Below are positions 1 through 9,562 of a stretch of DNA of 9,562 bases, in pieces. The notes under the pieces are model-generated. The model did no database searches. It saw only the letters and a list, made by a program, of their open reading frames with translations, and was not told the origin of the DNA. Every line of letters starts with the position of its first letter. Positions within the stretch are counted from its first letter, which is position 1. Origin of the DNA: Burkholderiales bacterium RIFCSPHIGHO2_12_FULL_69_20 (lineage in GTDB: Bacteria; Pseudomonadota; Gammaproteobacteria; Burkholderiales; Burkholderiaceae_C); contig MESD01000042.1 in the NCBI GenBank assembly GCA_001770815.1, positions 35,411 through 44,972 on the forward strand, read 5' to 3'. The translations under genes and the position numbers were made by a program.

Positions 1-218
1 ACAAGACTTCGAAGGCAAGGGCGCCACGGGGATCTGTAGTGAAGGAGCCCAAGGCTTATCTGAAGGGTGTGACATACAAGAACCCGAATGGTCCTGAGAC
101 TTGGATAGGTGGCTCACTTGGGCGCCAACCGCCCTGGCTGCGCCAGCTTGTGCCCAGCACCTTGCCTTTGGAGGAGCGAGCTAAGCAATTCAGTGGCTTG
201 GCGGTCAAGAAGAAGTGA
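1..218 (+). CDS. H-NS-family nucleoid-associated protein, C-terminal DNA-binding part (5' end lies outside the window)
   Basis: Frame 3 is open from the window edge to TGA at 216-218. The translation reads ...KGVTYKNPNGPETWIGGSLGRQPPWLRQLVPSTLPLEERAKQFSGLAVKKK. The TW-x-G-...-GR-x-P-x-WL segment matches the H-NS C-terminal DNA-binding loop. It is absent from the ORF track because there is no start codon in the window. Confidence 0.7.
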   Translation, partial: KTSKARAPRGSVVKEPKAYLKGVTYKNPNGPETWIGGSLGRQPPWLRQLVPSTLPLEERAKQFSGLAVKKK

Positions 219-338
219 TCTACCTACCGCAGAAGCTGGCGTCAATAGTTCGCGCCGGATTTGACTTAGTATGATAAATAGCTCTATCCGCGCAATGTGG
301 ATGACTGCATAGGTGTCAAGAGGCGAAAATCAAGACCC

Positions 339-377
339 GCCCCACTGTCCGTAACAGGATCGTGGGGCTTTTTGTTG
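339..377 (+). terminator. Rho-independent terminator-like hairpin
   Basis: GCCCCAC (339-345) pairs with GTGGGGC (362-368) and is followed by TTTTTGTTG. It lies about 120 nt downstream of the H-NS-like stop codon. Confidence 0.55.
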
Positions 378-1117
378 CCTTGATGGTAAATATAGTTGTC
401 AGCATCTTCGCCATGCAGACAACTATGCAGATGAAGGTTAGTGCGCCGAGTCAAAATTGCACCAGCGAGTCGTTCAGAATAGAGCGCAACAGCTAAGACC
501 CCCGGGCTGCCGATGTGGGGCAAGAACAAATAAAACAATGGCCTATAAAGCCATCAAGAGCGGACTACTGAAGCTGAGACATGCCGGTAGCTAACCAAGC
601 AGCTTGTGAGTGTTGTTCGAAGGAAGCTTCTTCCTAAAAACTGGCAGCGGTTCATAATGAGCTGATCATCCCGCTGCATACACGAGCCTATCGACGGCAT
701 CGTTTAGTGATGCGCAATGCGCGGGTTTAGACATAGTCAATCCAGTTCCCATAAATCACTTCTCGATTTGTATTGCAGCCTCACGACTGAAGAACACAAG
801 AATGTCATTGAAATAGACATGCCACCAATGGGAGATCAATGCATCTGCTGATTGATCGACCAAGTGGATGATGTGCCGCTTTCGTTGGTTCTTTGAATGG
901 GGTCAACAACAAGTGAATGAGTGCCGCAGCGACAGCGCAGGCATGAATGAGCGCAGTTGTTCGTCCGCGCTGAAAGCGTGGGGCGATTAAATGCAAATCA
1001 CGCGTGAGCGTAAGTAGCACATTTTTTTGGGAGAGCTCTGACTTGCGAAGTCGGCGGTCCGTTCGTTTGCACTCAAGACGATTGCTGTTCGTGCTGCCGC
1101 ACTCACTCGTGCGTCAT

Positions 1118-1229
1118 TCGCTTCGCTCATGCCACACGGCCAGTCGAGCCTGTCCTCCGTCTCGCTTCGCTCAACTGCGGAAGGCTGAACTGTATTGGCT
1201 GCGCCTTCGTTCTTCAGTCGCTTCGCTCA
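1118..1229. repeat. Three exact direct copies of the 12-mer TCGCTTCGCTCA
   Basis: Exact copies sit at 1118-1129, 1162-1173 and 1218-1229 (start-to-start spacing 44 and 56 bp). The surrounding stretch is rich in TTCG(C/T)T and has no convincing ORF. Confidence 0.85.
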
Positions 1230-1412
1230 GCAGACGAGTTTTGAACGATGCCATCGTAGAACTCAAGGAAGTCTCATGCCTGCGGCGCTAGCTTGTTGAT
1301 TGGCATGCAGTGGTTCATTTGATTTCTGATAGATGCTGATCAAAGAAAATCAGGTTGTCCTTTCGAGGAGGTAAAGCATAAAGTTGCGATCTATCAATGA
1401 CAGAGTTAGAAG

Positions 1413-1679
1413 ATGCTATTTGACCTTGGGGCAATAGTTGCCACCCCTAGCTGCCTGCGGCATTGCTTGAAGAGCAATGTTGATCCAATGCATCTCATTC
1501 GGCGCCATGCAGCTGGTGACTGGGGAAGTGTTGACTCTGACGATGTAAAGGCAAACGATCATGCAATCAAGCACGGCCTACGTGTCTTCAGCTCTTACAT
1601 CGTTGGTGATGACAAGGTCTGGTGCATCACGGAGGCAGATAGAAGTTCAACATGCCTCTTGCTTCCACAAGAATACTAG
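1413..1679 (+). CDS. Small conserved plasmid/ICE-associated protein of unknown function (GDWG...ITEADRS...LLPxEY family)
   Basis: 88-aa ORF containing RHAAGDWGSVDSDD...KHGLRVFSSY...VWCITEADRSSTCLLLPQEY. From memory, this motif string marks a roughly 90-aa family common on plasmids and integrative elements, sometimes mislabelled as type I restriction subunit M. The Shine-Dalgarno sequence is weak (GAG/GAAG upstream). Confidence 0.65.
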   Translation: MLFDLGAIVATPSCLRHCLKSNVDPMHLIRRHAAGDWGSVDSDDVKANDHAIKHGLRVFSSYIVGDDKVWCITEADRSSTCLLLPQEY

Positions 1680-1791
1680 TGGATGCTTCCTTGCATTGCC
1701 CCGTCAATTCGATGGGTGATCAATCTCCGGTCGCTCTCCACTCAAGAAGATCACATACTAGCTCTACTGTGTTTAACAAAGGAGCTAGGAA

Positions 1792-2235
1792 ATGAGTGCA
1801 CTTTCGAAGCTGAAGCTTGTGAGCGTTCAAGCCGAACGCAAATCTCCGACCAATCTGCGTCGTAACAAGCTGACTGGGAAAATTGACCAACAAATCGCGA
1901 GCGCAAAAGCCGCGATTGAAGGTCGCAGCTATGCCGCAAGTCGCACGAAATTCGTCAAGGACGGCGAAACTGGCGAGCGAAAGCAGGTTGAGTCGTCGAC
2001 CCGAGTCAAGCAGTGGTGGTGGAAGTCACCGACCGGGAAGGTCGTGCTTGCTTTGCGATATGGCGCCAAGCCGCTAGAAATCGCCAAGGGCAAGAACGCC
2101 ATCGAGGTTGGCGACATGGACGGCCTGGTTGCCGCACTAGAGGCGGTCAAGGAAGCCGTGCAGGCCGGCGAGCTTGACGCTCAGATCGAGCAGGCTAGCG
2201 GTGCACTGCGCGCTGGCTTCGCCAAGAAGAAGTGA
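1792..2235 (+). CDS. Conserved hypothetical genomic-island protein (resembles the family I recall as DUF6641)
   Basis: 147-aa ORF with a good SD (AAGGAG, 7 nt upstream). The motifs RRNKL..., ...KQWWW...GKVVLALRYGAKPLEIAKGKNAIEV..., and AVQAGELDAQIEQ match my recollection of this island-borne family. Confidence 0.7.
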   Translation: MSALSKLKLVSVQAERKSPTNLRRNKLTGKIDQQIASAKAAIEGRSYAASRTKFVKDGETGERKQVESSTRVKQWWWKSPTGKVVLALRYGAKPLEIAKGKNAIEVGDMDGLVAALEAVKEAVQAGELDAQIEQASGALRAGFAKKK

Positions 2236-2246
2236 GGGGCGGCGCA

Positions 2247-2411
2247 ATGAACACGTACCAGGCCTCGGTGCGCGTAAAGAGCGCCAGCGGCAGTGGCACG
2301 ATGGTGGTGTGGGCGCAAGTTCAAGCCAGCAACCCCATCGCAGCCCGGCAACAGCTTGAGGCTCAGTACGGGCGTGGCAACGTCGTCGGATTGCCTTGTC
2401 TTGCAGGCTGA
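2247..2411 (+). CDS. Small 54-aa protein, unknown function (below the ORF-track size cut-off)
   Basis: ATG at 2247 lies 12 nt after the upstream stop, with a GAGGGG SD about 8 nt upstream. Translation: MNTYQASVRVKSASGSGTMVVWAQVQASNPIAARQQLEAQYGRGNVVGLPCLAG. The tight spacing suggests co-transcription with 1792-2235. Confidence 0.5.
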   Translation: MNTYQASVRVKSASGSGTMVVWAQVQASNPIAARQQLEAQYGRGNVVGLPCLAG

Positions 2412-2430
2412 CCCGACGTCCTGCCACAAG

Positions 2431-3027
2431 CTAGGCTGGTGTGCGTGCCCGTCTGGCGAAGCCGATTGCCAGTAACCCCGCCGTAAGTAGCGCGAAAGTA
2501 GATGGTTCTGGTACTGCCTGCGCCTGGCCATACGCTGTGATCTGAACCTGGCCCGAAAGAGTCGCGCTGGGGCCTCCGGAACTGAAGGATGCCCCGCCAT
2601 TGCCCGAGAGCTTCGTGTCAGACTTGCCCAGCAACAGCCGGTTAAGGAACGTCCATGCCCCATCAACCGGCGCGTTGTTCTCCGTGACCATCTGCGATGC
2701 GCCCGGAGTCGGTTCTGTGACGCATGCGATGCTTAGAGGGTTGCAGAAGTGCAAGCCTACGCTGCTGCCGAGATAGGTGCTGACGAAGGTGACGGACTGT
2801 GGTGGGCCAAAGTTGGATGTGAATCCTATGAATTCGACCAAGTATGAATCCACCGTTGCTGAGCCCACGTCGAGACCGCCTGCGTCCCAGGAGCCGGCGA
2901 TGGTGTTTGGACTTCCCGAGAAACTGAAGTTGATGGTGGTCGAGTCAAGCGCTACGGCGGCGGCGTGCGTGACGTTGGTCATGGAAACGGCGACCATTGC
3001 AACTACCCCTACAACTCGGCTTTTCAT
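2431..3027 (-). CDS. PEP-CTERM sorting-domain secreted protein
   Basis: The C-terminus ...AVPEPSTFALLTAGLLAIGFARRARTPA is a canonical PEP-CTERM signal: VPEP, a hydrophobic helix, then an Arg cluster. I place the start at the internal ATG at 3027 (MKSRVVGVVAMVAVSMTNVTHAAA, signal-peptide-like, AAGGGA SD upstream) rather than the ORF-track start at 3171. Confidence 0.8.
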   Translation of the reverse strand: MKSRVVGVVAMVAVSMTNVTHAAAVALDSTTINFSFSGSPNTIAGSWDAGGLDVGSATVDSYLVEFIGFTSNFGPPQSVTFVSTYLGSSVGLHFCNPLSIACVTEPTPGASQMVTENNAPVDGAWTFLNRLLLGKSDTKLSGNGGASFSSGGPSATLSGQVQITAYGQAQAVPEPSTFALLTAGLLAIGFARRARTPA

Positions 3028-3266
3028 CGTTCGTCCCTTTAGGGCCTGTGCAGATTTGACTGCATAAATGTGCTCCGCTCTTGTTTGCGTTGCACGCGCA
3101 CCATGCGAGTGGAGCCCGCAACCGTCCTTAGGCTGACCTCCATGCGCGTCGCACTCATGGTACCGCTCCATAGTGCAACACCACCATCATTGACTTGGGG
3201 GATACCGAAGCCCGGCATTCGCGTCGTCGGCGCTGATAAATATGACGAACACCATGGGGACCAAAC

Positions 3267-3476
3267 ATGCGACTAGAAGAGATCCAACCGAAAGACGCAG
3301 CCGAGCAACGCGTCGACAGGCTGAAGGACAACGCGACAGCTGCGAGCGACAGGGCTAAGAAGCTCAAGGCGCAGGCTAACGCTGAAGCGGAGCGACTGCG
3401 TGTAACCCGGTCGCAAGAGCGGCCCGAGAGAACGACGAAGTCTGGGGCAGCCGCAATGATCAAGCCGCACTCCTAG
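3267..3476 (+). CDS. Small charged, probably helical protein, unknown function
   Basis: 69-aa ORF rich in K/E/A/R (…RVDRLKDNATAASDRAKKLKAQANAEAERLRV…) with a GGGGA SD-like element upstream. An antisense ORF (3273-3548) overlaps it and looks less protein-like. Confidence 0.4.
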   Translation: MRLEEIQPKDAAEQRVDRLKDNATAASDRAKKLKAQANAEAERLRVTRSQERPERTTKSGAAAMIKPHS

Positions 3477-3685
3477 TCGGTCGCCAGAAAGCGTCGAGAG
3501 AGGTCTGCACAAAAAGGAGGCACTCGGAGTCGTCCAAGAAAACATCAATTTAGCGAAGTTGCACGATCATATTGATCTATCGCGTTGGAGGTGCATTCGA
3601 TTATGGGGAATAGGGCGTGAAAATAAGTGATTGGTCGTCAACGCGGACGAAGATAAGCGAATTCGCATCAATGCCATTTCACCCT

Positions 3686-3716
3686 TGACAAACAACAATG
3701 CCCCTTTCGGGGCATT
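3686..3716 (-). terminator. Rho-independent terminator ending the 333-aa/139-aa operon
   Basis: Perfect 8-bp stem AATGCCCC/GGGGCATT (3697-3716) with a 4-nt loop (GAAA on the minus strand). On the minus strand it is followed by TTGTTGTTTGT. It lies about 25 nt after the stop of 3742-4161. Confidence 0.65.
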
Positions 3717-3741
3717 ATTTGGCAACAACACTGAGCAAACA

Positions 3742-4161
3742 TTACGATTCTTTGAACTCATTGAAGTCAAACTTGAGTGCATCCGCACATCGAATGTTGC
3801 GCATCACGTGCAGATTGTTTTCCTCCGTTTGCCCTGCTACTTCAAGCAGCCTAAAGCGACATTCATCCACATTGTCTTGCAGCAGCTCGACACCGTAGAT
3901 GGAAGCAAGCGGATTCTTGTGCCTGAGAGATGCCTTGATATATAGAACTGGCACGAAAACTTTTCCATTTCCTGCCGCCGGGGCAGAGTAGGTCTTACCT
4001 TCTTCCCAGGCTGTGTCCGGAAGTTGCGAAAGTAACTCCAACACTAGCTTGGTCGGAGTGAAGATTTCGCCATACTCCCTTGCACGCTCCTTGCTGCGCA
4101 CAAGGAAGTAGTCCATTGCTTCGTCTTCGCACAGCTTTTGCAACTCGGGCGAGAAGTTCAT
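3742..4161 (-). CDS. Methyltransferase-like SAM-binding module lacking the catalytic motif (gamma-class N6-adenine MTase N-terminal half)
   Basis: 139 aa. G31-EIFTP-TKLVLELL resembles motif X (FxTP). Y58-SAPAAGNGKVFV resembles a degenerate motif I ((D/E)PxxGxG). I88-YGVELLQDNV resembles motif III. NIRCADALKFDF resembles the segment just before motif IV. The ORF stops at ...NEFKES, so no (N/D)PP(Y/F/W) is present. Its start overlaps the upstream stop (ATGA at 4158-4161). Confidence 0.65.
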   Translation of the reverse strand: MNFSPELQKLCEDEAMDYFLVRSKERAREYGEIFTPTKLVLELLSQLPDTAWEEGKTYSAPAAGNGKVFVPVLYIKASLRHKNPLASIYGVELLQDNVDECRFRLLEVAGQTEENNLHVMRNIRCADALKFDFNEFKES

Positions 4162-5159
4162 TCTGGTTTTTTCTCACGCTGGGCATCGAACTCCTTCTTA
4201 ATGCGCATCGCACGCGCAAGACCGTCCTCGTGAATTTGTGTCTGCTTGGGAGTTATTACGGCCGGTGCGCCTCTGTCAGAGTGGACTAAGTCATTTGCGC
4301 GTTCCAAAGCAGGAATATCCTCGCCCGTCATAAGATACGGCATCACTTCCGCATCGTTCCTTGCAACCGCTTCGTGGTAGTCGCTCATATGCAGAACAGG
4401 ACTTCCCACGACGCCCGCAGTAAGTATTATTTGCGATGTAGTAACGACTACCTTTAGAAAGCTAAACCTCCCCTCATTTATCACAACGGTAATCTTTACT
4501 GATGCGCCCTCCTTGCAATACTTCATTAGCTGCAACAAGCGCGGCGCATCATACGAATACTGCGGCAATATCGCCCTATCACAATCGTCTGACAATGTGA
4601 ATCTGCACATTACCCGATCGTCAGGGCCGATTGCTGCACGAACCCGCATCCTTTTGTCAGTATAGATAACAAACTGATCATCATACTGAAACTGCTCGGC
4701 TTTCGACCACCAACCCCGCAATAGATCAGTGCCCTCGGCGGTAGCTTCGAAGGTTGCTTTGTCTTCAAATCCGTGTTTCCGCGATAGCAACTCATATGCT
4801 TTGTAGCTACCCATCGTTGCTTTAGATAGCAGGGGCACTGAATGCGAACTGTCATTGCTGCCTGTTATCAGGATTGACTTGGCTCCATTTCTTGCCCTGA
4901 ACATCGCCGCAGTGCAAGTTTGATAATGCGGATGCTTAAGGATTGCTTTGATTAGATCGAGCGTGCTTATCCCAACATCCTCGTCCAGCCCTTCTACCTT
5001 TTCGAGAAAGCCGCTATGTGCTCTGAAGATTTGAAACTCTGGATTCTCATAGCGGGAACTGCTAAAGCTGGCGCCGTGCTTTCCCAAGAAGAGAGGCTTC
5101 ATCTCTTCAAATGGTTGAACATACTGCACCAATAGCCGCAAGCAATCGATTAGTTGCAC
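4158..5159 (-). CDS. Unknown 333-aa protein with no family I can recognise
   Basis: Long ORF with a GTG start at 5159 and a GGAG SD 7 nt upstream. The 4-nt overlap with the downstream gene indicates translational coupling. It is among the lowest-GC parts of the window (about 40-48% on hand-counted lines). An alternative ATG at 5102 (MKPLFLG...) has a poorer SD. Confidence 0.7.
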   Translation of the reverse strand: MQLIDCLRLLVQYVQPFEEMKPLFLGKHGASFSSSRYENPEFQIFRAHSGFLEKVEGLDEDVGISTLDLIKAILKHPHYQTCTAAMFRARNGAKSILITGSNDSSHSVPLLSKATMGSYKAYELLSRKHGFEDKATFEATAEGTDLLRGWWSKAEQFQYDDQFVIYTDKRMRVRAAIGPDDRVMCRFTLSDDCDRAILPQYSYDAPRLLQLMKYCKEGASVKITVVINEGRFSFLKVVVTTSQIILTAGVVGSPVLHMSDYHEAVARNDAEVMPYLMTGEDIPALERANDLVHSDRGAPAVITPKQTQIHEDGLARAMRIKKEFDAQREKKPE

Positions 5160-5169
5160 TTCATTTCTC

Positions 5170-5196
5170 CAAAAAAATAGGCACCGAAGTGCCTAT
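5170..5196 (-). terminator. Strong rho-independent terminator after the 311-aa gene
   Basis: On the minus strand: ATAGGCAC-TTCG-GTGCCTAT (8-bp stem, UUCG tetraloop) followed by a 6-7 T run. It lies about 20 nt after the TAA at 5218-5220. The T run abuts the GGAG SD of the next gene. Confidence 0.75.
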
Positions 5197-5217: not shown

Positions 5218-6153
5218 TTACTTCTTCTTGGCTGCGTTGAGTGCTTTAGCAGCGATGTCAAAGTTGCTCTTGGCGAGCTTGACAACATGTTCCAGTGCGG
5301 AATGATCGTCCTTGGGTCTTGCAGCTTTGGCCGTCACAAGTTGTTCTTGTGCGACTGCCACAGCCATTTCAGCATTGACCTTTGCGGTTGTCAGCGCCAG
5401 CCGTTGGATCTTGATCTTCGGATCAACAGTAACCTTGGCTGCTTTCTCAGCTGCATTCTTGTTCCGTAAGTAGTCCACCAGTAGCTTGTCGCGCTGATCG
5501 TCGGAGAGAGGAATCTCCTTCAGCGTTGCTTCGTCGCCCTCGCCACGGATGGCAATCAGAATGCGATATTCTTGCTTGCCAATCCATTCAAACTCATCGA
5601 CTTCGGCAAGCGGCTCGCCGCTGTTTTCAAGCATTGAGACTGCATCGGACGGCTTGAGAGCAACGGTGGTAGATGCGCCCTTGGCGCGCGTGGGATCCTT
5701 AAACCCCGACAGAGCACCATCCTGAGCGTGCACAGCAGCAACGAACTCACCGACAGTCGTAGGCCGGTTAGGAAGCGCATATGCACCACGCACAGCCCTG
5801 GCCCAAATGCTGACTTGCTTGTCGTCAGCGTGGAAGACATAGCGAACGAGCGCATTGCTCAACTTTGCCGTCTTGGACATTTCCACTGGCGTCTGCAGTT
5901 CCTTCAGCTTTGCCAGAAGCTGGTCGCGGAACGAGCTCTCCTTGTCTTGCTGCATCACCGAGTAGTAGATCGCGTAGACCTCACCGATCAGTGAATACAA
6001 ACGATCACGGCCGCCGATTTCGATCTGTCTGTAATAGTCGCCAGCATCGGCGCGAAGCTTGACAACTTTGTCCATATGCTTCGACAGCTTGACCACCTTC
6101 GGCGACGCTGCATTTGCAACTGCATCGCTTTCGACTGCATTGTTTGCACCCAT
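5218..6153 (-). CDS. Unknown 311-aa protein with an Ala/Lys-rich helical C-terminus
   Basis: Long ORF with ATG at 6153 and an AAGGG SD about 8 nt upstream. No recognisable catalytic motif. The C-terminal 80 aa or so (…AEKAAKVTVDPKIKIQRLALTTAKVNAEMAVAVAQEQLVTAKAA…AAKALNAAKKK) looks coiled-coil-like. Confidence 0.7.
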   Translation of the reverse strand: MGANNAVESDAVANAASPKVVKLSKHMDKVVKLRADAGDYYRQIEIGGRDRLYSLIGEVYAIYYSVMQQDKESSFRDQLLAKLKELQTPVEMSKTAKLSNALVRYVFHADDKQVSIWARAVRGAYALPNRPTTVGEFVAAVHAQDGALSGFKDPTRAKGASTTVALKPSDAVSMLENSGEPLAEVDEFEWIGKQEYRILIAIRGEGDEATLKEIPLSDDQRDKLLVDYLRNKNAAEKAAKVTVDPKIKIQRLALTTAKVNAEMAVAVAQEQLVTAKAARPKDDHSALEHVVKLAKSNFDIAAKALNAAKKK

Positions 6154-6303: not shown

Positions 6304-7368
6304 TCAATCTGCATCAATGAGTCTTGCTGCCTTCGACATCACTTCACTTTTGATGACATGAGCGTAGACCATCGTGCTTTGGATTGACTTGTGACCCAAG
6401 TATTCCTTCACTTCCAGTAGCCCCATTCCAGCCTGCAGCAGGTGAACCGCCCTGGTGTGTCTAAGCGTATGTAACGACACCGAGCCTTGATCTTCATTCA
6501 ATGCAGCACGCTTGACAGCAGCAGCAACCCACTTGTTATTTGACTTGCCAACCTTCGATCCAAACACATAGTCACCAAACTCCATTGCGCGACGACGAGT
6601 AAAGATTTCACGCATCGTGTTGGTCATACCAATGGTGCCATCAATGCTGCCCTTGTTGCGCTTCATAAAGACTGTACCTGCATTGAAGTCAACTTGGTTC
6701 CACTTCATCTGTGAAATCTCTGTTAGTCGACCAGCACTGTCCAACAGCAACCTAACAAGGTCAAAGTTCTCCTGCTTCTGAGCAATGGTGACAACATCAA
6801 CACCAAGTGCAGGATCAAGTGCAGCAAGGAAACGAGCAAGTTCCTCTTTTGTAAGCCAACGAACCTTCCCACTGTCGTGCTTGATGGGAGTCATTTTCTT
6901 ACGGGTGGTATAGCCTTTTTCAGTGCAATACTTGAGCATTGCATTGAAGTAGGTGACTGATACCTTGAGTGTGCTTTCCTTGTAGCCTTCCTCACGCTTC
7001 TTGAAGACTACATCCTCCAACTGATGGTCGGTAATCTTGTCCAGCGTAAGGTTAGGCAGCATCTTGAAGTATCGAATGTGAATCTCGCAGTTCTGAGCAC
7101 TTGTCAGGTGCTTGCGAGACTTCACAAACAGATCGATTGCGTCATGCAGCTTGATTGGCTTTTTGTTGCCAAGCACGACTTCTTCGATTAGCTCGGCCTT
7201 CTTCTTCGCCAAGATGCGCTCAGCGTCACGACGAATGCCTGTGTGAGTGCTCTCCGCAATCATCACACCTTTGATCTGTGTTCGAATATGCCAAGTCTGG
7301 CCGCGCAGGATCAAGCCACCGTAGTTGGTTGGATGTCGTTCTGCCACTTGTTTCTCCTTCAGCGTCAT
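6304..7368 (-). CDS. int: Tyrosine recombinase / phage-type integrase
   Basis: The C-terminal catalytic signature …SLHTLRHTRAVHLLQAGMGLLEVKEYLGHKSIQSTMVYAHV… carries H-x-x-R, LGH and the nucleophile Tyr. A box-I-like AGRLTEISQMKW is also present. The ATG at 7368 lacks an SD. The in-frame GTG at 7347 follows AAGGAG by 6 nt and may be the true start. Confidence 0.93.
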   Translation of the reverse strand: MTLKEKQVAERHPTNYGGLILRGQTWHIRTQIKGVMIAESTHTGIRRDAERILAKKKAELIEEVVLGNKKPIKLHDAIDLFVKSRKHLTSAQNCEIHIRYFKMLPNLTLDKITDHQLEDVVFKKREEGYKESTLKVSVTYFNAMLKYCTEKGYTTRKKMTPIKHDSGKVRWLTKEELARFLAALDPALGVDVVTIAQKQENFDLVRLLLDSAGRLTEISQMKWNQVDFNAGTVFMKRNKGSIDGTIGMTNTMREIFTRRRAMEFGDYVFGSKVGKSNNKWVAAAVKRAALNEDQGSVSLHTLRHTRAVHLLQAGMGLLEVKEYLGHKSIQSTMVYAHVIKSEVMSKAARLIDAD

Positions 7369-7618: not shown

Positions 7619-7672
7619 CTGTGTATAGATTTTTTGTTCCGCGCAGGTTTATTCCCTGCTCCAAAGCAATGC

Positions 7673-7734
7673 AATGGATAGAACGGACCCCTCCTAAGGG
7701 TCAGATGTAGGTTCGATTCCTACTGGCCGCACCA
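7673..7734 (+). tRNA. 3' fragment of a tRNA-Arg(CCU) gene (D-loop to CCA); probable att repeat at the island junction, not an intact tRNA
   Basis: Anticodon arm GACCC-CTCCTAA-GGGTC gives anticodon CCT. T arm is GTAGG-TTCGATT-CCTAC. The acceptor 3' strand is TGGCCGC followed by A and CCA, ending at 7734. The required 5' acceptor strand GCGGCCA and the D-stem 5' strand are absent upstream (GCTCCAA pairs at only 4 of 7 positions; ATGC does not pair with GAAC). Confidence 0.7.
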
Positions 7735-7784: not shown

Positions 7785-8621
7785 TCAATAACCCGACAGG
7801 TCGGGCGCCGCAAAGTCCGACGGCCGGCCGTTGGCGTCGGGGTGACCGGTGTCGGTCAGGCGCCGCTGGGCGATGCGCTGCTTGTCGAGCATGCGGCTGA
7901 TGACGGCCGCTTCTTCACGCAACGAGAACGCAAACGGGTAGAGCGACCGCTCGCGCGAAGCCCGCTCGGGCTGCCCGCCGAATTCACCGATCTGCGCCTT
8001 GATGTACTCGAACTCCACACCCAGCAACACCGCCGGTGCATTGACCGACTTGTTCATCCGCTCGCCGGCCAGCACCTGGCAGCCCAGCATGCGCTCGTAG
8101 TAGCGCTCATGGCGCGGATTGACCTCGATGAGCAGCATGTCGTAGCCGCGAACCCGGTGCGCGACGATGTAGGCCACGTGGAACAACGCGGCCAGCACGC
8201 GCTTGGTGCCGACCGACGGATCGATGGCCAGCTTGGTGAACTCGCAGATCTTGCGGCCCTGGCGGCGCAACTCGCCCACTTCGGGACCGAAGGCGTCGTC
8301 CGCGCTCAGCTTGCTGAGCCCGTCGAACGACACGGTGATGGTGCCGATGGTGACGTCGGCTTCCACCGCCGTGAGGGTGAACTTGTGCACCGATTGGTCG
8401 GTCGGCAAGGTCACCTGCCCGTAGCCGCGCCAGGCGTAGCGGTCCTTGAGCAGGCTGTTGACGCGGCTGCGCCGGTCTTCGGACTCGGCCGTCTTGATCT
8501 TGAAACGACGCTGGCCGGCGGGCCCGTCGGGCAGCAGATCGATGCGGGGGTCTTGCACCAGCATGTGCCCGCCTGTGCCGCGCGCCAGCACCGATGCCGC
8601 GAAGATCGTGCTCGATTTCAT
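7785..8621 (-). CDS. GNAT-fold / FeeM-like N-acyltransferase (tentative)
   Basis: High-GC ORF. FKIKTAESEDRRSRVNSLLKDRYAWRGYG and ...ICEFTKLAIDP... match my recollection of N-acyl amino acid synthase (FeeM-type) proteins of the acyl-CoA N-acyltransferase fold. The start is ambiguous: ATG at 8621 (MKSST...) or 8564 (MLVQD...). The ORF-track start at 8729 runs into lower-GC sequence that looks intergenic. Confidence 0.55.
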   Translation of the reverse strand: MKSSTIFAASVLARGTGGHMLVQDPRIDLLPDGPAGQRRFKIKTAESEDRRSRVNSLLKDRYAWRGYGQVTLPTDQSVHKFTLTAVEADVTIGTITVSFDGLSKLSADDAFGPEVGELRRQGRKICEFTKLAIDPSVGTKRVLAALFHVAYIVAHRVRGYDMLLIEVNPRHERYYERMLGCQVLAGERMNKSVNAPAVLLGVEFEYIKAQIGEFGGQPERASRERSLYPFAFSLREEAAVISRMLDKQRIAQRRLTDTGHPDANGRPSDFAAPDLSGY

Positions 8622-8819
8622 GGGGACACCGGGTAAAGGGAAAAGCTGACCACTTCGACGCGAGACGACATTGAAACTGATGATACCCACCAAGGTGTGG
8701 CGCGAGCATGACGTCCGACCCGGGATCACAGGCTATTTCCGGCAACAAGCCGCTGCAAGCGCCTTTCGATGGGAAATACCCCTTGAATGAGGGGGCGAGC
8801 CATCCATGCGCCATGCCTG

Positions 8820-9562
8820 TCAGGCCGTTGCAGTGTGCGCCGGGATCATGGCTTCGAGCATGCTCAGGCAGTCGGCCTGGTGTAACGGTTTGTCGTGGCG
8901 GATTCTCAGCATGCGCGGAAACCGCAGCGCGATGCCGCTCTTGTGGCGCGGGCTGTGGGCGATGCCCTCGAAGCCCAGTTCGAAGACCAGCGTGGGCCGC
9001 AGGCTGCGCACCGGGCCGAACTTCTCCAGCGTGTTCGCGCGGATCACCGCGTCGACGGCCTTGAACTCGGCATCGGTCAGGCCCGAGTAGGCCTTGGCGA
9101 AGGTGACCAGCTGCAGCGTGCCGGGCTGGGCGGGCTCTCGCCGGGTGATGGCCTGCACCACCGCATCGGCTTCGTCGGCATCGGCGGGCGGGCGGCTCCA
9201 CACCGCAAAGGTGTAGTCGGTGTACAGGCCGGCACGGCGGCCATGGCCGGCCTGGGCATAGACGAGCACCGCATCCACGGTGCAGGGCTCGATCTTCCAC
9301 TTCCACCACACACCATCGGCCTTGGTGCGGCCGGTGCCGTAGGCCGAATCGCGCTGCTTGAGCATCAGGCCCTCGACCCCAAGCTCACGGCTGCGTCGGC
9401 GCTGTGCGGCCAGTTCGACCCAGCTGTCGGCCTGCAGCGCCGGCGACAGCCGCAACGGCCCGGCGGCCAGCAGTTGCTCGAGCCGGTGGCGACGCTGGTG
9501 CTGGGGCCATGTGCGCTGGTCCTGGCCGTTCACTTCCAGCAGGTCGTAAGCGATGAACTGCA
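8820..9562 (-). CDS. ATP-dependent DNA ligase, C-terminal part (5' end outside the window)
   Basis: …EGLMLKQRDSAYGTGRTKADGVWWKWKIEP…VFELGFEGIAHSPRHKSGIALRFPRMLRIRHDKP… matches the adenylation/OB-fold motifs of bacterial ATP-dependent ligases of the ligase-associated DNA damage response type. The frame stays open upstream of the track's start to the window edge (…QFIAYDLLEVNGQDQ…). Confidence 0.85.
   Translation of the reverse strand, partial: QFIAYDLLEVNGQDQRTWPQHQRRHRLEQLLAAGPLRLSPALQADSWVELAAQRRRSRELGVEGLMLKQRDSAYGTGRTKADGVWWKWKIEPCTVDAVLVYAQAGHGRRAGLYTDYTFAVWSRPPADADEADAVVQAITRREPAQPGTLQLVTFAKAYSGLTDAEFKAVDAVIRANTLEKFGPVRSLRPTLVFELGFEGIAHSPRHKSGIALRFPRMLRIRHDKPLHQADCLSMLEAMIPAHTATA

Follow-up and report, generated by a model that had tools for sequence, protein, structure and literature searches.

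A mobile-island operon joining a protein of predicted sliding-clamp fold to the SAM-binding half of an N6-adenine methyltransferase

The 9,562-nucleotide (nt) stretch of DNA analyzed here (the "window") comes from Burkholderiales bacterium RIFCSPHIGHO2_12_FULL_69_20 (contig MESD01000042.1, positions 35,411–44,972) and contains part of an integrase-bearing genomic island. On this island lies a three-gene operon comprising a gene for a basic protein of 311 amino acids (aa), a conserved hairpin, a gene for a 333-aa protein whose model has a sliding-clamp fold and, overlapping its end, a gene for a 139-aa protein that is the non-catalytic, S-adenosylmethionine (SAM)-binding half of a gamma-class N6-adenine DNA methyltransferase (MTase). 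The module is a rare conserved operon of a small integrase-bearing island family of Burkholderiales, and we put the probability that its identity and architecture are as described at roughly 0.85. Its components are of known kinds (a clamp fold and an uncharacterized PHROG family), yet the combination and the three-gene operon have not been described before: the pairing is absent from PADLOC, and the searched literature held nothing relevant on a clamp paired with a methyltransferase or defense protein, on DUF6641 (a domain encoded elsewhere on the island), or on truncated MTase accessories, in agreement with the first-pass annotation, which knew of no such system. The features of the module are as follows.

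5218–6153, minus strand: basic 311-aa protein (isoelectric point 9.0) whose C-terminal third is a coiled coil; the module starts with this gene
5170–5196, minus strand: upstream hairpin (5196–5177) plus a run of seven U (5176–5170), between the 311-aa and clamp-like genes; intrinsic-terminator-like
4158–5159, minus strand: 333-aa protein of predicted clamp fold; GTG start, with GGAG 7 nt upstream
4158–4161, minus strand: stop/start overlap (ATGA) through which the MTase half is translationally coupled to the clamp gene; also the recombination breakpoint between island variants
3742–4161, minus strand: 139-aa SAM-binding MTase half; ATG start; motifs X, I, II, and III
about 3686–3716, no strand assigned: downstream hairpin between the operon and a convergent 69-aa open reading frame (ORF); probable terminator with an imperfect U-tract

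The Three Genes and Their Conservation

The first-pass annotation, made from the letters alone, could assign the 333-aa protein to no family or catalytic motif; a fold can now be proposed, while a sequence family still cannot. The protein matches nothing in Pfam, PHROG, PADLOC, or NCBIfam, its eight relatives likewise draw no clamp-family profile hit, a word-indexed search of 5.8 billion clusters retrieved the protein itself alone, and tblastn against phages and plasmids returned nothing. An exhaustive HMMER search of 1.84 billion representatives assembled a family of eight clusters, which share a core of ~250 residues followed by a variable tail and in which G63, H76, P77, F137, and W150 are invariant; pattern-seeded locus searches with this alignment found no stretch conserved enough to serve as a seed. 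In a profile search of PDB sequences, the family ranks PCNA first, weakly (E = 0.009). The AlphaFold2 model built from the eight-sequence alignment (predicted template modeling score 0.69; mean predicted local distance difference test score, pLDDT, 71) has a confident core at residues 1–255 and a disordered acidic tail of ~80 residues (256–333), and the top 50 Foldseek matches to it in the PDB are all PCNA or 9-1-1 (E from 2e-7, target TM 0.55–0.67). Among viral structures in BFVD, the best matches are two uncharacterized 239-aa phage proteins (A0A2I7SAX6 and A0A6J5TA98; E 1e-11, TM 0.80), also of two-domain clamp fold but without detectable sequence similarity to the 333-aa protein (12–17% identity); lower ranks hold phage sliding clamps and giant-virus PCNAs, with the poxvirus late transcription factor VLTF-1 at rank 12. 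As modeled, then, the 333-aa protein has a two-domain PCNA/sliding-clamp fold.

Its core is like the subunits of PCNA, T4 gp45, and 9-1-1—trimeric rings of two-domain subunits—in the pseudo-symmetric beta-alpha-beta-beta-beta fold and the length of ~250 residues. Unlike them, the protein belongs to no clamp Pfam or NCBIfam family (PCNA_N/C, DNA_pol3_beta, gp45), carries the disordered acidic tail, has inner helices less basic than those of canonical clamps, has no loader or polymerase nearby, and is encoded on an island alongside a half-MTase. Given the missing sequence-family membership, the missing loader and polymerase, and the weakly basic inner helices, we do not file it as a working sliding clamp. 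A different identity was considered and rejected: the sequence NPEF at residues 39–42 might have been a degenerate motif IV, making the pair a split MTase, but it is unconserved in locus L011 and in the family, and the clamp is not a Rossmann fold.

That the 139-aa partner is a catalytically incomplete SAM-binding half, as first proposed, is agreed upon by Pfam, PHROG, PADLOC, the family alignment, and the AlphaFold2 model. The Pfam N6_Mtase profile aligns to it over positions 11–97 of 311 only; PHROG 21201 (proteins of ~156 aa labeled "DNA methyltransferase") matches at 6.5e-14 and PHROG 4376 at 1.5e-7, the family profile spanning the full length of the short protein; and PADLOC contributes only the generic MTase_I/II models (MTase_II, 2e-8). 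The family alignment keeps motif X (FTP), motif I (G-N-G), the acidic residue of motif II, and motif III (D-A-L), and every member stops short of motif IV. The model (pLDDT 88) has only three short strands and overlays the SAM-binding region at the N terminus of DrdV, CamA, M.BseCI, MmeI, LlaGI, and HsdM, and in sequence and structure the protein aligns with the corresponding region of Eco57I, MmeI, CamA, DrdV, the type ISP enzyme LlaGI, HsdM, and PglX. In contrast to these gamma-class N6-adenine MTases it ends just ahead of motif IV: it terminates right after motif III and has no NPPY (motif IV), no strands beta5–7, and no target-recognition domain. It is, therefore, incapable of methylation alone, and is the non-catalytic SAM-binding half of such an enzyme.

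The two genes above had been put forward as a terminator-bracketed pair of overlapping minus-strand ORFs. The ORF coordinates bear out the pair and its shared ATGA, and both hairpins are real (z = -2.1 for the fold energy of 5170–5196 and z = -3.1 for that of 3686–3716); the upstream one, however, sits inside a three-gene unit, so that the image of a bracket misleads, and the functional unit extends to the upstream 311-aa gene. The real unit runs from the 311-aa gene through the hairpin, which is conserved, and the clamp-like gene to the MTase half that overlaps it. The 311-aa protein matches nothing in Pfam, PHROG, PADLOC, NCBIfam, or the PDB, a word-indexed homolog search returned it alone, and tblastn against plasmids found nothing; it and the clamp-like protein are near-orphan families. 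Nonetheless, homologs with 33–43% identity stand directly upstream of the clamp gene in L011, L020, L023, L025, and L193, i.e., in every lineage with a readable upstream region. The 311-aa family also keeps an internal KQVS[IV][WY]A segment, similar to the bacterial beta-clamp-binding motif QL[SD]LF, and a C-terminal S-x-D-[IV]-A-x-x-E-L-K tail; from their sequence these are possible clamp-interaction peptides, and we treat them as leads only.

The upstream hairpin (-11.9 kcal/mol, with 6 of 200 shuffles folding equally well) is not remarkable in isolation, terminator-like sites in the whole window being no more frequent than chance (9 found, 9.5 expected). It is credible because its position is kept in six of six lineages despite differing stem sequences: each 48–73-nt spacer between the 311-aa and clamp genes contains, immediately ahead of the ribosome-binding site of the clamp gene, a GC-rich hairpin with a U-run, with a core of the form GGGC(A/G)C...GTGCCC. 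In the window it lies only ~10 nt before that site, leaving no room for a promoter, and is probably a within-operon attenuator or a stabilizer of mRNA 3' ends; most simply, it is an attenuator that gives a lower dose of the clamp and half-MTase than of the 311-aa protein. The downstream hairpin folds at -18.2 kcal/mol on the minus strand and at -14.1 kcal/mol (z = -2.7) on the plus strand; its U-tract is interrupted (GUUGUUUGU), and a consensus terminator scan did not call the site.

Relatives of the clamp protein with readable surroundings fall into seven lineages (all loci related to the module are metagenomic). The half-MTase gene lies immediately downstream of the clamp gene in five of the seven, in keeping with the earlier expectation of a translationally coupled pair conserved as neighbors. 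The ATGA overlap is identical in the window, L011, L023, and L193 (four of the five lineages with the pair), and the genes overlap in L020 too. Identities to the window proteins in these relatives are listed below.

L011: clamp 31%, half-MTase 77%
L020: clamp 25%, half-MTase 57%
L023: clamp 28%, half-MTase 52%
L193: clamp 22%, half-MTase 64%

The half-MTase is held at 140–153 aa in lineages whose clamps are only 21–31% identical, and because the overlap is kept at such clamp divergence, the junction is not a chance juxtaposition. The ratio of nonsynonymous to synonymous substitution rates (dN/dS) of the small gene against its L011 ortholog is 0.19, and the gene is under purifying selection.

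These observations bear on the possibility that the 139-aa ORF is a dying fragment of a restriction–modification (R-M) system or orphan MTase that lies beside an unrelated gene by chance. Its motifs do reach only as far as motif III, a recombination breakpoint falls at the gene junction, and motif I of the window copy no longer has its aspartate. Yet a dN/dS of 0.19, the size and overlap maintained beside highly diverged clamps, and a family whose more than 550 relatives are all short by design argue the other way, and no C-terminal MTase remnant or NPPY occurs in any frame of the islands. Decay is, thus, largely refuted and highly improbable: no related island has a full-length MTase of this family, and the NPPY motif is absent from every ORF of the islands. 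L193 separately encodes a beta-class N6_N4 DNA methyltransferase (783–1769, 328 aa) unrelated to the half-MTase family.

Comparison of the window with L011 shows how the module changes. Their DNA is 87% identical over 1413–4166, through the half-MTase gene to its junction with the clamp gene, and no identity is detectable beyond. At the protein level, the half-MTase and the 69-aa, PEP-CTERM, 54-aa, DUF6641, and 88-aa ORFs are 77–95% identical, whereas the clamp and 311-aa proteins are 31 and 36% identical. From this pattern we infer that the 311-aa and clamp genes are swapped or diverge as a pair while the half-MTase stays constant and, since the two genes change together, that the 311-aa protein is tightly tied to the clamp. 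The module as a whole co-travels with DUF6641 (PHROG 31551), the 54-, 69-, and 88-aa ORFs, a 188–190-aa integrase-like gene, and a large integrase, on islands that use differing integrases and sites (tRNA-Arg in the window, guaA in L020). In this it resembles the backbone of an element more than cargo that is swapped in and out.

Short Relatives and Split Methyltransferases

Relatives of the half-MTase were sought in genome and metagenome collections with a hidden Markov model (HMM) of the family alignment, the 139-aa protein being the query sequence. More than 1100 were found; all 160 that were fetched are short (105–267 aa), and no short member has an NPPY motif. A census of the neighbors of 189 short members placed an NPPY protein immediately upstream in 58 and immediately downstream in 44, and a clamp-like protein upstream in 19, the last being redundant copies of ~5 islands. 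An HMM search of the 160 half-MTase-probed loci found no further clamp-like or 311-like ORFs. A clamp-fold neighbor of the half-MTase occurs only in this island family, whereas phage and most bacterial short proteins neighbor an NPPY protein or an Eco57I-type MTase with a ResIII helicase.

The downstream partners are Eco57I-family MTases of ~500–550 aa, followed by a ResIII helicase, sometimes with a T5orf172/MUG113 nuclease fusion, and MTase and helicase together match a fused type ISP/IIG-like PADLOC profile. This three-gene operon, found in many phyla, comprises a half-MTase of ~215 aa, the Eco57I-family MTase, and a helicase of ~850–970 aa (e.g., L066 5995–10794; L041 5995–10837; L069 5977–8158 with 9408–12329). 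Its makeup suggests a type ISP/IIG-like R-M system in split form, to which one further MTase-like subunit, itself non-catalytic, has been added.

An upstream NPPY partner is the typical arrangement on phage-like contigs and for the nearest relatives of the window protein (L017, 58% identity; L112, 53%). Of 51 complete upstream partners, only 17 themselves include a recognizable motif X–I half. In several, motif IV is exactly where the protein begins (MKFDVVIGNPPY..., with "MKFDVVIGNPPYQ" at residues 9–37), and in others motif I is degenerate and its glycine loop is missing; the short protein, for its part, ends "...ADALKFDF," directly ahead of where the partner's motif IV begins. Because it ends where the partner starts, the short protein in these contexts is the SAM-binding half, detached from the catalytic one, of an N6-adenine MTase that is split and order-permuted. 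Layouts in which the upstream protein starts from motif IV and the short gene lies just downstream are listed here.

L160 3254–3991; L179 4063–5016; L183 122–862; L149 308–1240: split MTases
L119 4123–5007; L122 1077–2066; L155 181–1185: split MTases, same layout as L160

The separate downstream protein of these split enzymes, ~150 aa long, has motifs X and I–III. Split order-permuted N6-adenine MTases are widespread in phage-like metagenomic contigs, and no description of them was found in the searched literature. That fragments of a DNA MTase can assemble in trans into an active enzyme is itself established, both in nature (M.AquI, two polypeptides) and by engineering (bisected M.SssI and M.HhaI) (PMC3404938, PMC2836561); the logic proposed for NPPY-partnered half-MTases is the same. 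However, these precedents are C5-cytosine enzymes whose split falls in the variable region, whereas the half-MTase family belongs to the N6-adenine enzymes, is split between motifs III and IV, and has the reversed gene order; in the island, moreover, the catalytic fragment is missing.

T4-like phages also have the split arrangement, e.g., PKO111 with gp114 (GIY-YIG plus the motif IV region) and gp115, and Synechococcus phage Bellamy has the layout helicase, MTase, an intervening gene, and half-MTase. The short proteins of PHROG 21201/4376, such as PKO111 gp115 (32% identity), are of the same family as the 139-aa protein and similarly short, and gp115, like the 139-aa gene, overlaps the end of a larger upstream gene. 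In this Klebsiella phage (L030 2491–4426), the 495-aa gp114 overlaps the 153-aa gp115, which holds the SAM-binding half only; the RefSeq label "methyltransferase" on gp115 is probably incomplete. More generally, R-M annotation is affected, as short proteins are now labeled "DNA methyltransferase" although they are not catalytic alone. The census brings to light two things: natural split, order-permuted N6-adenine MTases of phages, which form a large uncharacterized family, and the half-MTase/Eco57I-MTase/helicase operon in many phyla.

Two candidates from this survey were rejected. The idea that phage-like upstream partners are themselves clamp-like gained nothing from hhalign of the clamp profile against the 240-aa protein of L029 and PKO111 gp114, in which Pfam finds an HNH domain and GIY-YIG plus MTS domains, respectively. 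A 446-aa "fusion" in L111 proved to be an artifact of ORF over-extension in high-GC DNA.

Possible Roles of the Module

Hardly any work exists on bacterial PCNA-fold proteins that have no loader and stand outside replication, and here a clamp-fold protein shares a fixed operon with a protein for which only partner docking and SAM binding are plausible as a role. We tentatively propose that the two act as a DNA-associated complex. The half-MTase, its half Rossmann sheet leaving an exposed edge, would be shaped for docking onto a partner; because such a docking-built protein is translated in fixed coupling with its clamp-fold neighbor, a heteromer of the two is probable. Its DNA-associated platform would be the clamp-fold subunit, perhaps as a trimeric ring, and the half-MTase would supply SAM binding or else a docking surface for an NPPY half provided in trans by host or phage. 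The 311-aa protein, which co-diverges with the clamp, is its likely direct partner, and the hairpin may lower the dose of clamp and half-MTase relative to it. Such a complex might serve the island as a controller or sensor of adenine methylation, or might interfere with the split methyltransferases of phages, and would not be a free-standing R-M or toxin–antitoxin system. No catalytic MTase, nuclease, or helicase domain occurs in the window as an R-M system would require, and no toxin or antitoxin Pfam domain was found in the module proteins.

Several observations weigh against this picture. The clamp model was built from eight sequences only, at a mean pLDDT of 71. Its four predicted inner helices are weakly basic (3–8 K/R vs. 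3–7 D/E across the family), so that any ring on DNA is conjectural. The module comes with no loader for the clamp, no polymerase, and no nuclease or other effector; loader and polymerase are also missing from 20 kb of the near-identical contig L002. The small gene is absent from two clamp lineages, L025 and L192. The window copy lacks the motif I aspartate (SAPAAGNG vs. LDPAAGNG in the family), which may weaken SAM binding. Finally, the breakpoint between island variants falls exactly at the ATGA, and one half-MTase type works beside clamps only 31% identical; given that position, a tightly co-evolved clamp/half-MTase interface is not to be expected unless it runs through the invariant residues G63, H76, P77, F137, and W150.

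Parts of the proposed complex have known parallels. In eukaryotes, PCNA recruits DNMT1, so that a DNA clamp tethers a methyltransferase-type activity to DNA. Among integrative elements, ICEclc encodes a DNA clamp, the ParB-like BisD-CTP clamp, that controls the behavior of the element (PMC12409273). Both are functional analogies only: neither is homologous to the module, and folds or partners differ. If a DNA-riding complex of this kind does form, it would give a mobile element a new way to read, write, or sabotage adenine methylation. A bolder version, which we consider rather unlikely as it stands, is that a PCNA-like ring of a mobile island has replaced the catalytic half or the helicase motor of an R-M-derived module, and that the resulting clamp-tethered half-MTase complex on DNA completes an adenine MTase with an NPPY half in trans or traps the NPPY halves of phages. 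Were it true, prokaryotes would have a counterpart of PCNA–DNMT1 coupling, and DNA surveillance or epigenetic systems would gain a new, clamp-based class.

The clamp fold is chiefly a replication fold, and the module may instead be a unit for replication or maintenance of the element, in which the 311-aa protein is an initiator or DNA-binding factor, the clamp, like a processivity factor private to the element, brings the host replisome to the excised island or keeps it there, and the half-MTase is an accessory subunit. Its place in a conserved backbone beside integrases, on islands with different integrases and sites (tRNA-Arg, and guaA in L020), fits this alternative, as does the lack of any other recognizable replication gene on the island; the paired mosaic replacement of the 311-aa and clamp genes recalls the swapping of replicon-specificity modules, and the KQVS[IV][WY] of the 311 family resembles the beta-clamp-binding consensus QL[SD]LF. 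However, there is no polymerase, primase, helicase, loader, or recognizable initiator fold, the 311-aa protein being without any match; no iterons stood out among the repeats of L002, although no iteron search was made in the window; tblastn found no copies on plasmids or phages; and the half-MTase would be left without a role. We regard a replication unit as possible, if somewhat doubtful.

Defense or anti-defense cargo acting on its own, the reading favored by the first-pass annotation, would account differently for the same proteins, for instance with the half-MTase as a decoy for phage NPPY halves, leaving phage DNA unmethylated, or with the clamp sensing free DNA ends. The half-MTase family does descend from R-M systems and phage split MTases, divergence of the 311-aa and clamp genes is rapid, two island types have the module close to an integrase, and its distribution is rare and patchy. 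But PADLOC offers generic MTase models only (neither the 333- nor the 311-aa protein matches any PADLOC-DB 2.0 model), effector domains are absent, the neighbors are backbone genes and not known defense systems, and the module is constant across island variants, unlike variable cargo. We find a stand-alone defense role unlikely.

By analogy, a clamp fold without replication partners might also serve as a transcriptional or developmental switch, with a DNA-loaded clamp as a mobile activator platform that the 311-aa protein and half-MTase would link to RNA polymerase or to SAM status. VLTF-1 among the structural matches (rank 12), the precedent for DNA clamps controlling the activation of integrative elements (PMC12409273), and the position of the module beside an integrase, with its dose controlled by an internal hairpin, are compatible with a switch. 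On the other side, the operon has no sigma-like or helix-turn-helix partner, no promoter or enhancer features were identified, and the support is purely analogical (e.g., T4 gp45 with gp33/gp55, or BisD of ICEclc), with T4 gp45 requiring a loader and DNA nicks. Such a switch is improbable, and the DNA-associated clamp/half-MTase complex remains our working proposal.

The Island and Its Ends

The window consists of two compositional parts, an island of 46–62% GC from position 1 to ~7671 and a core of 64–70% GC from ~7734. The clamp/half-MTase cassette had been described as a nested, separately acquired module of particularly low GC (40–48%); by exact count it is 49.1% GC and, thus, not distinct from the remaining island in the window (52.4%) or the integrase (48.2%), with the 311-aa gene at 53.7% and the core at 66.8%. 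It is indeed close to the integrase, as also stated then, with the conserved 311-aa gene in between. The other features of the window are as follows.

1413–1679, plus strand: 88-aa ORF, island backbone; 59% identical in L023
1792–2235, plus strand: DUF6641 protein (PHROG 31551), island backbone; 93% identical in L011, present also in L025 and L193
2232–2411, plus strand: 54-aa ORF, island backbone
2431–3171, minus strand: PEP-CTERM sorting-signal protein, a 246-aa ORF carried on the island
3267–3476, plus strand: 69-aa ORF, island backbone, convergent with the cassette
6304–7368, minus strand: tyrosine integrase, 354 aa (Pfam Phage_integrase 3.7e-24; PHROG 1 1.5e-47)
7672–7733, plus strand: attachment (att) repeat, a displaced 62-nt copy of the 3' part of tRNA-Arg(CCT), at the integrase-proximal island end
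7785–8729 and 8820–9533, minus strand: FeeM-type N-acyl amino acid synthase and the 3' part (C-terminal) of a bacterial ATP-dependent DNA ligase, core flank

A near-identical element is present on L002, a 55-kb metagenomic contig, with zero nucleotide differences from the window in the integrase, 311-aa, 333-aa, and 139-aa genes. This contig carries a 62-nt direct repeat at 6428–6489 and 19630–19691 (85% identity, 13.2 kb between copies). The first copy corresponds to window 7672–7733, where, beside the integrase, GC steps from ~46 to ~67%, and the second lies in an intact tRNA-Arg(CCT) at 19630–19704, beyond the window; tRNA (ARAGORN) and Rfam scans of the window itself found nothing. Because the repeat, the tRNA copy, the GC step, and the integrase coincide, the island is taken as a ~13-kb tRNA-integrated element: it is 13.2 kb long and inserted at tRNA-Arg(CCT).

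Between strains, the island varies in its distal part (window 1–1412). The window and L002 part ways left of 1413, where their sole match is 180 nt long (271–450) at 84% identity. In the distal half of the L002 island, a family of repeats at 15678–19529 (64–116 nt, 4–6 copies, 61–91% identity) has the look of repetitive extragenic palindromes or miniature inverted-repeat transposable elements, and is scattered among an FRG-domain gene, an insertion sequence (rve), and small ORFs. In the core flank of L002, the DNA ligase gene is in an operon with NUDIX, Exo_endo_phos, and PLD-like genes.

Two further points concern individual island genes. The L011 ortholog of the PEP-CTERM protein is 198 aa long and 95% identical; since it is shorter, the true start in the window is probably Met49 of the 246-aa ORF (~3027) and not 3171. 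Near the module, four variants also have a short integrase-family ORF of 188–190 aa (L002 14130–14696, L023 6131–6697, L025 2987–3559, and L193 4264–4836) in addition to the full-length integrase; this short ORF may be a small recombinase or regulator and not a random fragment.

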